Shown: piece by piece, positions 14,545-17,399 of the stretch
Position numbering within the stretch: position 1 is the stretch's first letter
Layout: each line of letters starts with the position of its first letter
IMG/VR virus record: IMGVR_UViG_2778261510_000015
Location: 1 to 21,211 of that record
Length of the DNA: 21,211 nucleotides
DNA from: a virus
Taxonomy: Duplodnaviria; Heunggongvirae; Uroviricota; Caudoviricetes
Reading direction: 5' to 3' (one strand)
Program-made: the position numbers and the translations under genes
Notes under the pieces: model-generated
Seen by the model: the letters and a program-made list of their open reading frames with translations, nothing else
Told to the model about the DNA's origin: nothing
The model's database searches: none

Positions 14545-15068
14545 CTATCAAATCAAATACGCCAGCACACGACAAGGACTGCTGGCAAACGCCGCTTTGG
14601 CTTTTTGATGCGCTGGATATTGAGTTTGGATTCTGGCTGGATTCAGCTGCGAGCGACAAAAACGCTCTGTGCGCTCACTGGCTAACTGAGGCCGACGACG
14701 CGCTAAATTCTGAGTGGATAAGCCACGGTGCAATCTGGAATAACCCACCGTACAGCAATATCAGGCCGTGGGTGGAAAAAGCCGCTGAGCAGTGCATACA
14801 ACAGCGACAGACGGTAGTTATGCTTGTGCCAGAGGATATGTCAGTCGGATGGTTCAGCAAGGCTCTGGAGAGTGTCGACGAAGTTCGTATTATCACTGAT
14901 GGACGGATTAATTTTATCGAACCATCGACGGGGCTGGAGAAGAAGGGAAACAGCAAAGGCTCCATGCTGCTGATTTGGCGACCGTTCATCAGTCCTCGAC
15001 GGATGTTTACTACCGTATCCAAAGCGGCATTGATGGCGATCGGGCAGGGTGTCAGGAGGGCTGCATGA
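14541..15068 (+). CDS. Phage Dam-type N6-adenine DNA methyltransferase (175 aa)
   Basis: NPPY catalytic motif (IWNNPPYSN); start ATG overlaps ninB stop (ATGA). Confidence 0.8.
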   Translation: MTIKSNTPAHDKDCWQTPLWLFDALDIEFGFWLDSAASDKNALCAHWLTEADDALNSEWISHGAIWNNPPYSNIRPWVEKAAEQCIQQRQTVVMLVPEDMSVGWFSKALESVDEVRIITDGRINFIEPSTGLEKKGNSKGSMLLIWRPFISPRRMFTTVSKAALMAIGQGVRRAA

Positions 15069-15910
15069 TAAATGTCGTTAGTTTCTCAGGTGGCAGGACG
15101 TCAGCATATTTGCTCTGGCTAATGGAGCAAAAGCGACAGGCAGGTGAAGACGTGCATTACGTTTTCATGGATACAGGGGCAGAGCACCCTAAAACATATG
15201 AGTTCATCCGAAATATCGTCAGTAACTGGAAAATAGACTTATATTGCCTTCGTGTAATACCTAATCCAGAAATGGGGAAGGCCAGTAGTTATGAAGAGAT
15301 AGGTGTCAATGATATTGGTCCAGATCTTATACCGTGGAAAAGGATGTTGAATAAATACGGACATCCATATATCGGCGGTGCGTTCTGTACCGACAGAATG
15401 AAGTCTGTTCCATTCACCAAATATTGTCAGGAAAAGTTTGGGAAAGGAAATTACATCACATGGCTTGGCATTCGCACAGATGAACCAAACAGGCTTAAAA
15501 GGGCTAATGGTTTTCGGTACCTGGCTGATATAAGCGATTTTGAAAAACAGGATGTGCTTGATTGGTGGAGTGAGCAGAAGTTTGATCTTGGCATACAGGA
15601 GCATCTTGGTAATTGTGTTTTCTGCATAAAAAAAAGTATGCAAAAGGTGGCGCTGGCAGCCATGGATGAGCCAGAACTTGCAGATGCATTTATCAACATC
15701 CTTGATACAGAAATAAAAACAGGAAAGGAACCGGTTATGTATCGAGGGAATAATACACTTAAATCACTGATTGCCTTGTTTAGTGATATATCAAGAGATG
15801 AGTTAGCCTCAAGAATGACATCAATGCGACAGTATGATTCAGGTTCGTGTTCTGAATCATGTGAAGCATTTTCATGTCAGCTTGGATTTAATTTTGAGGA
15901 TGCGTCATGA
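15065..15910 (+). CDS. PAPS-reductase-family PP-loop protein (281 aa), occupying the ninC position
   Basis: PP-loop [12 protein letters not shown] near N-terminus; start overlaps methyltransferase stop (ATGA). Confidence 0.7.
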
Positions 15911-16089
15911 GACGACAGCGACGAAGTATCACCGACATCATCTGCGAAAACTGCAAATACCTTCCAACGAAACGCTCCAGAAATAAACGCAAGCCAATCC
16001 CAAAAGAATCTGACGTAAAAACCTTCAACTACACGGCTCACCTGTGGGATATCCGGTGGCTTAGAGAACGTGCGAGGAAAACAAGGTGA
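15907..16089 (+). CDS. ninE: NinE (60 aa)
   Basis: Matches recalled lambda NinE. Confidence 0.8.
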
Positions 16090-16189
16090 TTGACCCAAAT
16101 CGAAGTTACGAACAAGAAAGCGTCGAGCGAGCTTTAACGTGCGCTAACTGCGGTCAGAAGCTGCATGTGCTGGAGGTTCACGTGTGTGA

Positions 16190-16735
16190 GCGTTGTATAT
16201 ATGAATGCTTAAATATGGTGGAACATAATGAGAAATATAAGCAACATAGACGAATTAAGAAATAAATTATCATATGATGATGTTTTAGGTGTGCTTAGAT
16301 GGAAAGTGTCTCCTTCTAATAATGTTAAGGTTGGCAGTGTTGCTGGTTACATTAGGAGTGATGGTTATAGGATGTTAACTATCGATGGTGTAATTACTTA
16401 TGCTCACCACGTTATATGGATGATAAATAATGGTGAGATTCCATTAGGGTATAAAATTGATCATATAAATGGAGTAAGGTCAGATAATAGGCTATCTAAT
16501 CTTCGATTGGTTACACACCAACAAAATGCACAGAACCAAAAGAGAAAAATAACCAATTCGTCAGGAGTGACTGGAGTGTATTTCAATAAAGAGAGATGCA
16601 AGTGGATTGCGAATATATGCGTAGATGGGCGCACCAAATATCTTGGAATATTTGCTAGCATCATTGACGCTATTGCAGAAAGGAAGAGGGCAGAAAAAGA
16701 ACTGGGTTTTCATGAAAACCATGGCAGACCATAAC
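16190..16735 (+). mobile_element. Free-standing homing endonuclease gene insertion within ninF (approximate boundaries)
   Basis: AT-rich block interrupting a conserved gene and carrying an HNH ORF; left boundary after gtgtgtgag, right boundary at the HNH stop. Confidence 0.65.
16228..16734 (+). CDS. HNH homing endonuclease with C-terminal AP2-like DNA-binding domain (168 aa)
   Basis: HNH_3-type motif IDHINGVRSDNRLSNLRLVTHQQNAQN; AP2-like segment SGVTGVYFNKERCKWIANICVDGRTKYLGIF; markedly AT-rich codon usage. Confidence 0.8.
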   Translation: MRNISNIDELRNKLSYDDVLGVLRWKVSPSNNVKVGSVAGYIRSDGYRMLTIDGVITYAHHVIWMINNGEIPLGYKIDHINGVRSDNRLSNLRLVTHQQNAQNQKRKITNSSGVTGVYFNKERCKWIANICVDGRTKYLGIFASIIDAIAERKRAEKELGFHENHGRP

Positions 16736-16787
16736 TGCGCAGAACTGATGAGCGATCCGAATAGCTCAATGTACGAGGAAGAAGACG

Positions 16788-17399
16788 ATGGCTAAACCAG
16801 CGCGAAGACGATGTAAAAACGATGAATGTCGGGAATGGTTTCACCCTGCATTCGCTAATCAGTGGTGGTGCTCTCCAGAGTGTGGAACCAAGATAGCACT
16901 CGAACGACGAAGTAAAGAACGCGAAAAAGCGGAAAAAGCAGCAGAGAAGAAACGACGACGAGAGGATCAGAGACAGAAAGATAAACTTAAGATTCGAAAA
17001 CTCGCCTTAAAGCCCCGCAGTTACTGGATTAAACAAGCCCAACAAGCCGTAAACGCCTTCATCAGAGAAAGAGACCGCGACTTACCATGTATCTCGTGCG
17101 GAACGCTCACGTCTGCTCAGTGGGATGCCGGACATTACCGGACAACTGCTGCGGCACCTCAACTCCGATTTGATGAACGCAATATTCACAAGCAATGCGT
17201 GGTGTGCAACCAGCACAAAAGCGGAAATCTCGTTCCGTATCGCGTCGAACTGATTAATCGCATCGGGCAGGAAGCAGTAGACGAAATCGAATCAAACCAT
17301 AACCGCCATCGCTGGACTGTCGAAGAGTGCAGGGCCATCAAGGCGGAGTATCAGCAGAAACTCAAAGACCTGCGAAATAGCAGAAGTGAGGCCGCATGA
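16788..17399 (+). CDS. ninG: NinG (Rap) recombination-associated protein
   Basis: 203-aa ORF matching recalled lambda NinG. Confidence 0.9.

Follow-up and report, generated by a model that had tools for sequence, protein, structure and literature searches.

What has become of ninF in this prophage, and what is the AT-rich DNA that now divides it? The window, the whole 21,211-nt stretch analyzed here, carries a lambda-like prophage, integrated beside ybhC, in which ninF is interrupted by DNA of different composition. A sequence-only reading had proposed an invasion of ninF by a free-standing HNH–AP2 homing endonuclease gene. After alignment, profile and structure searches and a survey of occupied and empty alleles, we think it probable that the element is a free-standing (intron-less and intein-less) I-HmuI-like HNH, or "HNN", plus AP2 homing endonuclease gene lodged in the ninF of lambdoid prophages.

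Anatomy of the interrupted ninF

The features of the locus are as follows.

15907–16089, + strand: ninE, the upstream neighbor (Pfam NinE, E=3e-43); its stop overlaps the ninF start (GTGA)
16086–16195, + strand: 5′ part of ninF, codons 1–36 and the first 2 nt of codon 37, aligned to λ and SfI ninF, with a complete CxxC...CxxC zinc ribbon
16086–16265, + strand: ninF′ ORF in its present form, 59 aa; NinF residues 1–37, then a 22-aa insert-encoded tail, IYECLNMVEHNEKYKQHRRIKK, and a stop
16192–16193, + strand: two substitutions close to the junction, CAC to CGT (His36 to Arg), in 32/32 occupied copies and 0/122 empty alleles, the latter being IMG/VR alleles picked with a pattern containing CAC, so that their uniform CAC is partly circular
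16196–16734, + strand: inserted element, 539 bp, 35% GC; its first base, T, completes TGT (Cys37), and its last codon is the TAA stop of the HNH ORF
16217–16222, + strand: Shine–Dalgarno-like GGTGGA, 5 nt upstream of the HNH ATG; read from the sequence, function presumed
16228–16734, + strand: HNH(HNN)–AP2 homing endonuclease ORF, 168 aa (Pfam HNH_3, PHROG 99), overlapping the ninF′ tail by 38 nt in a different frame
16399–16533, + strand: nuclease core, residues 58–102, with D78-H79, N87, N91-L92-R93 and N100/N103
16555–16707, + strand: AP2-type DNA-binding domain, residues ~110–160, of three strands and a helix, followed by the family's conserved C-terminal motif GFHENHG
16712–16795, + strand: possible 27-aa restart ORF (MKTMADHNCAELM...DDG, stop), in frame with the ninF 3′ part; expression conjectural
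16735–16795, + strand: 3′ part of ninF, the third base of codon 37, codons 38–56 and the stop, which overlaps the ninG start (ATGGCTAA)
16788–17399, + strand: ninG (rap), the downstream neighbor (Pfam NinG, E=1e-90), with its own GAGGA Shine–Dalgarno inside the ninF 3′ part

Alignment to the ninF genes of λ and SfI and to insert-free alleles defines a 539-bp insert at 16196–16734, within codon 37. The sequence-only reading had placed the ninF pieces close to these positions and had put the intervening DNA slightly too long, at about 545 bp. A 542-bp insert with a 3-bp deletion is an equally parsimonious parse, and the left junction may be set anywhere within 16192–16196 and the right within 16733–16735. 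Homology to λ and SfI ninF ends at 16191–16195 (...HVCE[R]C) and resumes at 16735. The 5′ ORF matches Pfam NinF (PF05810) at 45.7 bits (cutoff 27.5) over model positions 1–25 of 25; the 3′ coding sequence, 16736–16795, gives a peptide that matches positions 37–57 of PHROG 672. The insert is indeed AT-rich, with a GC of 0.35 against 0.49 in the ninE, ninF and ninG flanks. Since the flanks rejoin on excision as a complete ninF, differing at 3/171 nt from the uninterrupted allele of E. coli 1008S13, the case for an insertion goes far beyond chance. As had been read from the letters, the ninF 5′ part, the HNH ORF and the ninF 3′ part lie in three different frames (0, 1 and 2, from starts at 16086, 16228 and 16736).

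That ninF is split is thus correct, but it is not simply destroyed. The interruption falls in phase 2 of codon 37, and because the first base of the insert restores Cys37 and the CxxC...CxxC domain survives, the zinc ribbon of NinF stays whole and just the 19-aa acidic tail is detached. NinF is in any case dispensable, as is known from the λ nin5 deletion. No empty allele with the CGT junction change was found, and the best-matching one has CAC.

The ends of the insert show no terminal inverted repeats, terminal direct repeats or target duplication. We therefore reject an IS element or transposon, since the sole ORF is the HNH–AP2 gene and such repeats are absent. No sigma-70-like promoter belonging to the insert was found. 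One weak terminator-like hairpin, at 16176–16191, is within chance (expectation 1.1).

The endonuclease and its relatives

The HNH motif noticed in the 168-aa ORF corresponds to a match to Pfam HNH_3 (PF13392) of 70.1 bits, well above the cutoff of 24.8, over residues 58–102; the ORF also matches PHROG 99 at E=3e-70, and a profile of its family detects I-HmuI at E=1.5e-9. The catalytic residues are in place. Among 37 relatives, D78, N91-L92-R93 and N103 are invariant and H79, N87 and N100 occur in at least 90%, with D78/H79 and N100 aligning to D74/H75 and N96 of I-HmuI. In I-HmuI, the Asp-His pair is reported to act as general base, with one Asn structural and another metal-binding. The AlphaFold model of the protein (pLDDT 90) has strands at 75–79 and 92–96 followed by a helix at 97–103, that is, a ββα-metal fold, whose top Foldseek match in the PDB is I-HmuI (1u3e; probability 1.00, E=1.6e-3).

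The AP2-like domain proposed in the sequence-only reading is real, even though by this protein alone AP2 (PF00847) scores 15.4 bits over residues 112–143 (E=0.024), below the Pfam gathering score of 33.3. The family profile matches the AP2 domains of WRI1 (E=1.7e-6) and AP2IX-6 (E=0.004), and 18/37 aligned relatives match PF00847 at E≤1e-3, the best at 3e-8. In the model, strands 117–120, 125–132 and 135–142 and helix 145–159 superpose on ERF1 (1gcc) at 1.8 Å over 49 columns (Foldseek probability 0.99), and the TEM1 AP2 domain is also similar. In PADLOC, the locus matches solely generic homing endonuclease ("HEase") models, with no match to a defense system beyond these.

Relatives had been proposed to be sought in T-even or other phages, and T-even phages did not prove to be their particular home. 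The closest relatives, at no more than 52% identity, come from virulent siphoviruses of Klebsiella and E. coli, T1-like phages among them, where such HNH genes are present in multiple copies. Together with the GC contrast, this kinship with HNH genes of virulent enterobacterial phages suggests that the insert is of foreign origin. Free-standing HNN–AP2 endonuclease genes are known from the Xanthomonas phages Xp10, OP1 and Xop411 and the coliphages T1, Rtp and T5 (PMC2248197). In those phages and their siphovirus relatives they are AT-rich, often multi-copy and ~160–180 aa long, and the window protein has in common with them the boxes AH(R/H)xxW, DH, DNR, NLR and xxN, the lack of cysteine dyads and the AP2 domain that follows. 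The Xp10/T1-type copies are intergenic, in virulent phages, and are reported to lack conserved flanking sequence (PMC2248197). The ninF insert, by contrast, interrupts a gene of temperate phages and is invariably located at a single nucleotide position.

The best structural and profile match is I-HmuI of Bacillus phage SPO1 (PDB 1U3E), over residues ~32–107, with alignment of the catalytic Asp-His and Asn. I-HmuI differs in being encoded in a group I intron, in having a C-terminal helix-turn-helix instead of AP2, and in its overall identity of ~21%. It nicks one strand; the nuclease activity predicted for the window enzyme may be a nick or a double-strand cut.

Genes split by endonuclease genes offer another comparison. 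The HNH gene mobE lies in nrdA of Aeromonas phage Aeh1 and mobA in gene 39/60 of T4 (PMC3045599, PMC2988022), and, as with ninF, the uninterrupted host gene is present in related phages. There, however, virulent T4-like phages are the hosts, and the interrupted genes encode essential enzymes whose halves must reassemble, while the ninF insert sits in a temperate lambdoid prophage, in a 56-codon dispensable accessory gene of which one piece keeps a whole recognizable domain. The DNA-binding architecture of MobE is also different, not AP2, and for ninF both occupied and empty alleles are available in large numbers from a natural population. Gene 31 of Salmonella phage epsilon34, the N-terminus of eaE fused to an HNH homing endonuclease (PMC2629481), likewise has an HNH gene within an accessory early gene, in that case of a temperate lambdoid phage of the P22-like type. 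That fusion, however, is in frame and in the early-left operon, and its HNH is related to those of Gram-positive phages. The insert in the nin region is of the HNN–AP2 class, and its ORF has a separate start codon and differs in frame from ninF.

Distribution and diversity of the insert

Occupied ninF makes up 47 of ~2372 copies (~2%) in 5426 complete E. coli genomes, always with identical junctions, so the insert is far from being a general feature of lambdoid ninF. IMG/VR holds at least 120 empty and ~29 occupied loci. None of the 421 ninF-bearing phage records, among 50,697 searched by megablast and sensitive blastn, contains the insert, nor did other species yield it when one genome of each GTDB species was scanned with peptide seeds and junction patterns. 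HNH genes as such are not unusual in this neighborhood, contrary to what had been supposed, since related prophages have others next to ninB, dam and Q. What is unusual here is the location within a gene.

The HNH ORF is intact in 36/38 full-length copies examined. In RefSeq, the intact endonuclease is usually labeled an "incomplete" pseudogene and two NinF CDSs are annotated, which renders the element invisible to annotation-based surveys. Copies labeled "incomplete" in E2348/69, SW07096, E308 and AST240 might be taken as degenerate, but direct translation gives intact ORFs, and the labels are artifacts. Within the lineage there are 13 synonymous and 10 nonsynonymous polymorphisms (pN/pS 0.20), and against a 79%-identical sister lineage, L009 (run SRR25288770), dN/dS is 0.06. 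Purifying selection on the ORF is clear.

How recent is the event? The E. coli copies are 98.5–99.8% identical to one another, in keeping with the recent invasion that had been suggested. However, L009 occupies the same ninF position at 79% identity, and the association with ninF is therefore old. Its insert differs in length by 27 nt and has AGGAG where the window has GGTGGA; in complete E. coli genomes this lineage had no match.

Across 32 copies with the same junctions, the insert has a nucleotide diversity (π) of 0.005. The adjacent exons of these copies, whose SNPs include those at 16096, 16117, 16768 and 16772, have 0.029 and 0.018, values that match those of empty alleles (0.037 and 0.018). 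The insert is thus 4–6 times (about fivefold) less diverse than exon sequence at most 80 bp away. The left-exon haplotypes of 26/32 occupied copies, and the right-exon haplotypes of 30/32, are also found among empty alleles; one insert haplotype is paired with eight ninF N-terminal types, and the 32 copies display at least 20 distinct flank combinations, so that the insert is joined to almost the full range of ninF alleles. Low diversity of an insert linked to many alleles is the signature expected of homing, and the gene looks mobile. The contrast argues against long vertical co-inheritance, yet it is no proof of endonuclease-driven conversion.

Homing and its alternatives

How would such a gene move? 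The HNH gene lies within the early-right (nin) transcript from pR and would accordingly be silent in the lysogen and expressed in lytic growth, with translation of the protein from a Shine–Dalgarno and an ATG of its own, both located within the last stretch of the truncated ninF′ ORF. The occasion for homing would arise when an insert-free lambdoid genome is present in the same cell, through co-infection, superinfection or co-induction of a second prophage. We propose that the enzyme would bind through its AP2 domain and N-terminal DNA-binding parts and nick or cut at or near the intact ninF sequence ...GTGTGTGAGCACTG^CTGCGCAGAACTG..., the putative target in the empty allele lying around GAGCACTG^CTGCGC. 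Recombinational repair, using the occupied allele as template, would then copy the insert together with short co-conversion tracts; Red, RecA and the products of the neighboring genes, NinB/Orf and NinG/Rap, are candidate repair functions. The occupied allele would escape, its site being split by the insert and two neighboring bases altered. For the phage, the burden would be small, since ninF is dispensable, the zinc ribbon is preserved and ninG has its own ribosome-binding site.

Some points call for caution. The cleavage site of a free-standing endonuclease is often hundreds of bp away from the gene that encodes it (PMC2988022), and so the target may not be the insertion site. An occupancy of ~2%, with no sequenced free phage carrying the insert, is low for an efficient drive. 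I-HmuI-type enzymes are reportedly nickases, and homing from a nick is less efficient. Several occupied records give multiple matches to a ninE–ninG query and, by these matches, occupied and empty ninF appear to share some genomes. If the extra places do carry ninF, such co-residence would be expected only with the gene repressed in lysogens.

Other readings of the locus have to be weighed against homing. Ordinary homologous or Red-mediated recombination in mosaic nin regions could in principle shuffle a passive insert, and it may be supposed that one old HNH–AP2 insertion no longer homes and has been spread by modular lambdoid recombination, its protein being kept for another role, such as cutting the DNA of competing or superinfecting phages (exclusion, inter-phage warfare) or aiding recombination in the nin region. 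The mosaic boundaries do fall at gene edges on both sides of ninF, strong purifying selection would fit any useful function, the rarity of the insert in prophages and its absence from the phage records agree with passive carriage, and phages are known to have nuclease genes at the boundaries of exchange between them (PMC10448857). Nevertheless, we hold this to be rather unlikely. Joining so uniform an insert to almost every empty-site ninF allele needs many crossovers within tens of bp of it, for which a break at that site is the simplest explanation; moreover, the family is one of typical multi-copy selfish HNH–AP2 genes (PMC2248197), and PADLOC offers no defense system other than "HEase". 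A further proposal, which we rate as doubtful and a little below passive carriage, makes the insert a maintained weapon combined with a split-gene module: the endonuclease, made from the early-right operon once the prophage is induced or the cell superinfected, would cut the intact ninF region of rival lambdoid phages and bias recombination and progeny in favor of its own prophage. It would be harmless to its host phage, a part of the proposal that we find equally doubtful, in that its first base restores Cys37 and the FHENHG codons provide restart ATGs for an acidic ′NinF peptide and for translation into ninG. If true, this would be a natural gene-drive and exclusion system among resident E. 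coli prophages.

It is tempting to see a functional split gene here, on the model of NrdA split by mobE in phage Aeh1. In such an arrangement, which is compatible with homing, NinF′ with its zinc ribbon and a restarted acidic peptide of 24–27 aa would reassemble or work separately, and translational coupling into ninG would be kept. The intact zinc ribbon and the restored Cys37 are in its favor, as are the ATGs at 16712 and 16721, which are in frame with the ninF 3′ part, keep the same frame relation in L009 despite the difference in length, and lead to a ninF stop that overlaps the start of the following gene in both lineages. However, these ATGs derive from codons of the FHENHG motif and are a by-product of its conservation across the HNH family in any genomic context; no Shine–Dalgarno precedes either of them, and conservation of frame is expected by chance one time in three. 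The NinF′ tails of the two lineages, IYECLNMVEHNEKYKQHRRIKK and IYVLLNAGDDHEDNN, are unrelated, and the tail is therefore not constrained. Further, ninG carries its own Shine–Dalgarno, and NinF has no known function by which reassembly could be judged. Hence, a functional split gene seems very unlikely. A self-splicing element, be it a group I or II intron or an intein restoring intact NinF at the RNA or protein level, would account for a precise insertion in conserved coding sequence, as is typical of such elements, but it is so improbable that it can be set aside. There is no match to any Rfam family at E≤10 in 15800–17100 on either strand, the RNA folding of 16165–16265 is unremarkable (z = −1.6), and the non-coding part of the insert comprises only 32 nt, into which a ribozyme is impossible to fit. 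An intein is excluded, since the ORF starts and stops by itself and shares its frame with neither part of ninF; stop codons are also found at both junction regions. The free-standing gene of the sequence-only reading is thus the interpretation best supported.

As an instance of a familiar type of genetic parasite, the ninF insert is clean, though it brings nothing fundamentally new. In the literature searched, we found no paper linking ninF to an HNH insertion, and what is understood of the biology of phage homing endonucleases comes, to our knowledge, almost wholly from virulent T4-like phages. Here, there is a compact and well-delimited case in temperate lambdoid prophages of E. coli, at one exact site. 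Since hundreds of empty and dozens of occupied alleles are already sequenced, and λ, a tractable model, has the empty site, homing itself, the length of co-conversion tracts and the part played by Red, Orf and Rap in repair are directly testable by λ genetics. The locus also illustrates that a selfish gene needs neither intron nor intein to invade a coding sequence if it settles at a domain boundary of a dispensable gene.

Anatomy of the interrupted ninF gene

The window is the left half of a lambda-like prophage, with the gene order ybhC (host), lambda-type integrase, Exo/Bet-like recombinases, S24 repressor, O, P, NinB, Dam, PAPS-reductase (NinC-like), NinE, interrupted NinF, NinG, phosphatase, Q and lysis genes. 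At its start (1-2489), ybhC adjoins the integrase, which has an Arm-binding domain; the prophage is therefore at or near the classical lambda attachment site. The layout around ninF is as follows:

15907-16089: ninE
16086 onwards: 5′ part of ninF (ninF′), agreeing at every base with ninF of lambda and SfI as far as 16191-16195
16196-16734: insert, 539 bp
16228-16734: HNH-AP2 open reading frame (ORF), 168 aa, within the insert
16735-16795: 3′ part of ninF (′NinF), from the return of homology to the ninF stop, which overlaps the ninG start

Alignment with lambda ninF and an uninterrupted allele places the junctions at 16195/16196 and 16734/16735. The sequence-only reading had proposed an insert of about 545 bp that leaves three coding pieces in three frames; the length is refined to 539 bp, while the position inside ninF and the frames (0, 1 and 2, by start coordinates) stand. 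GC content is 35% in the insert versus 49% in the flanks. When joined, the flanks restore the full 171-nt ninF, which has only three differences from the uninterrupted E. coli 1008S13 allele, two of them directly beside the junction (CAC to CGT, 16192-16193). An equally parsimonious parse is a 542-bp insert after GAGC with loss of one CTG.

The insertion point is in phase 2 of codon 37 (TG|C). Since the first insert base, T, remakes the Cys codon, truncated NinF retains C19-x2-C22...C34-x2-C37, and the product matches Pfam NinF over all 25 model positions. The acidic C-terminus is replaced by a 22-residue insert-encoded tail. Thus, the proposed splitting of ninF applies to the acidic C-terminus, which is cut off, but not to the zinc Cys set and the Pfam NinF region. 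The HNH ORF shares 38 nt with the ninF′ tail and has a Shine-Dalgarno sequence, GGTGGA, 5 nt before its ATG. At 16176-16205, and in occupied alleles only, the T-rich beginning of the insert (GTTGTATATAT) comes after the native ninF hairpin GTTCAC-GTGT-GTGAGC, giving a weak intrinsic-terminator-like site; its significance is doubtful because 1.1 such sites are expected in the region by chance.

Could the insert be another kind of element? An intron is rejected, as there is no Rfam family at E<=10, only 32 nt are non-coding and folding is unremarkable. Nor is it an intein, given that the ORF is not in frame with ninF and supplies its own start and stop, or a transposon, terminal repeats and target duplication both being absent. 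A simple promoter scan of the insert found no promoter of its own; therefore, its expression presumably depends on the pR transcript.

The HNH-AP2 protein and its relatives

The HNH assignment is borne out by matches of the ORF to Pfam HNH_3 (70 bits) and PHROG 99 (E=3e-70); with PADLOC, only "homing endonuclease" models are matched. Across an alignment of the protein and 36 relatives, D78, N91-L92-R93 and N103 never vary and H79, N87 and N100 are kept in at least 90%, so that catalytic residues are not lacking; D74/H75 and N96 of I-HmuI, a precedent for the catalytic domain, are the aligned counterparts of D78/H79 and N100. The ORF contains AHHxxW, DH, DNR, NLR and QQN boxes and no cysteine dyads, a set that fits the "HNN-AP2" class reported from Xanthomonas phages, T1, Rtp and T5 (PMC2248197). 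The AP2-like domain is sub-threshold for the single sequence (E=0.024). It is supported, however, by the family profile against WRI1 AP2 (E=1.7e-6), by PF00847 matches in 18 of 37 relatives and by the predicted fold: the AlphaFold model (pLDDT 90) has I-HmuI and then plant and apicomplexan AP2 domains as its best PDB matches, and ERF1 superposes on it at 1.8 Å over 49 columns.

Among precedents, the closest are nrdA of phage Aeh1, which mobE splits, and mobA in T4 gene 39/60 (PMC2988022, PMC3045599), together with the fusion of eaE and HNH in the lambdoid phage epsilon34 (PMC2629481). A further precedent is given by intergenic HNN-AP2 genes in virulent phages (PMC2248197), which encode relatives at most 52% identical to the ninF-insert protein. 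Our literature search found no paper linking ninF with HNH insertion.

Signs of mobility, distribution and age

The junctions, CGT change included, are identical in 32 of 32 aligned copies, and homology among occupied loci collapses outside about 16115-16795. These 32 copies have 20 different combinations of flanks, with Dam, NinB, NinD, PAPS reductase or NinX upstream of ninF and NinG, KilAC antirepressor or hypothetical genes downstream. Nucleotide diversity (pi) is 0.005 in the insert versus 0.029 on its left side (75 bp) and 0.018 on its right side (52 bp); in 122 empty alleles it is 0.037 (left exon) and 0.018 (right exon), and the occupied exons are practically the same as these. Most exon haplotypes of occupied copies also occur among empty alleles (left 26/32, right 30/32), and one insert haplotype occurs with eight ninF N-terminal types and both right-exon types. 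A young, uniform element amid the full diversity of old alleles is the pattern to be expected from repeated gene conversion in which co-conversion tracts are short. This alone does not prove that the element's own nuclease starts the conversion events, since lambdoid nin regions recombine freely anyway.

Of 5426 complete E. coli genomes, 45 carry the insert, at 47 places in all, each of them within ninF; identity is 95-99.8%. With ninF in about 2372 places (1711 genomes), occupancy is about 2%. In IMG/VR, occupied loci number about 29, and empty loci with the exact canonical target exceed 120; JGI and ENA metagenomes add four more. The insert was not found in the representative genome of any GTDB species, nor, sensitive blastn included, in any of 421 flank-matching records among 50,697 phage records. 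It is thus not at the same junctions in most lambdoid phages. The contrast between chromosomal and sequenced-phage ninF copies may be due to sampling, because the phage collection is highly redundant, with many lambda and Stx phages in it; alternatively, occupied prophages could be rarely isolated as plaque-forming phages.

The 168-aa ORF is intact in 36 of 38 full-length copies. One inactivated copy has an IS3-family element within the HNH gene (L008, E. coli Eco_70239, 1263-2491), and the other, on a metagenome-derived contig (L038, ~2253), has a +1 G frameshift that may be a sequencing error. A diverged second lineage (L009 1-909, Logan SRR25288770) has the same left junction within a diverged ninF (IHVCEKC|IY...), with ybcO in place of ninG downstream; its HNH ORF, of 176 aa, reads through to a TGA overlapping the ATG of the next gene. 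No match to this lineage turned up in complete E. coli genomes or among GTDB species representatives; its identity to the E. coli lineage is 79% over an ungapped 555 nt (85% in amino acids). Polymorphisms in the E. coli lineage (13 synonymous, 10 nonsynonymous) give a pN/pS of 0.20, and dN/dS between the lineages is 0.06, with dS near saturation; therefore, the HNH protein has long been under purifying selection. Because the second lineage occupies the same ninF site, the association with this site is old. Recent invasion accordingly describes the young E. coli element but not the association itself. The insertion is real, and its first interpretation is supported with refinements.

In RefSeq (PGAP), the intact 507-nt HNH ORF is often labelled an "incomplete, partial" pseudogene between two "NinF" CDSs, the second of which ("protein NinF", TTG start, ~51 aa) overlaps the HNH ORF 3′ end. 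The annotations concerned, in comparison loci carrying the insert, are at:

L003: 6193-6342, 6464-6619
L004: 3014-3067, 3237-3389
L006: 3007-3060
L007: 3366-3515

On direct translation, every one of these records yields a complete HNH ORF; the element is therefore hidden from annotation-based surveys.

Proposed homing and neighbouring modules

We propose that the HNH-AP2 gene would be expressed during lytic growth, and that the AP2 and N-terminal DNA-binding parts of the enzyme would recognise intact ninF, which it would nick or cut at or near GAGCACTG^CTGCGC. Red or RecA repair, with Orf and Rap, off the occupied allele would then copy the insert, and the occupied allele would be immune because its site is interrupted and changed. 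The phage presumably pays little in fitness, since ninF is dispensable, being located in the dispensable nin5 region, the NinF domain is kept and ninG has a GAGGA Shine-Dalgarno of its own. Two ATGs, at 16712 and 16721, share the reading frame of the ninF 3′ part, a relation that also holds in L009. A functional ′NinF restart peptide is nevertheless a low-probability add-on, because these ATGs stem from the family-wide conserved FHENHG motif and no Shine-Dalgarno precedes them.

Between dam and ninE (14975-15910) lies a 311-aa PAPS-reductase-domain protein (lambda NinC-like), with PADLOC matches to SspD (5e-14), BrxP (6e-8) and DndC. Its gene is missing from the otherwise 97-98% identical nin region of 1008S13 (L010) and is therefore a separate presence/absence module. 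Other, different HNH endonuclease genes occur in prophages with the ninF insert (L004 1450-1977; L005 and L007 1404-2015; L007 5949-6461). All lie between genes of the early-right operon, in the ninB-dam interval, ahead of ninB or past Q. HNH endonuclease genes thus seem to settle commonly in lambdoid nin/Q regions. Rather than in new biology, the value of the ninF insertion lies mainly in a tractable natural system and in the correction of an annotation error.
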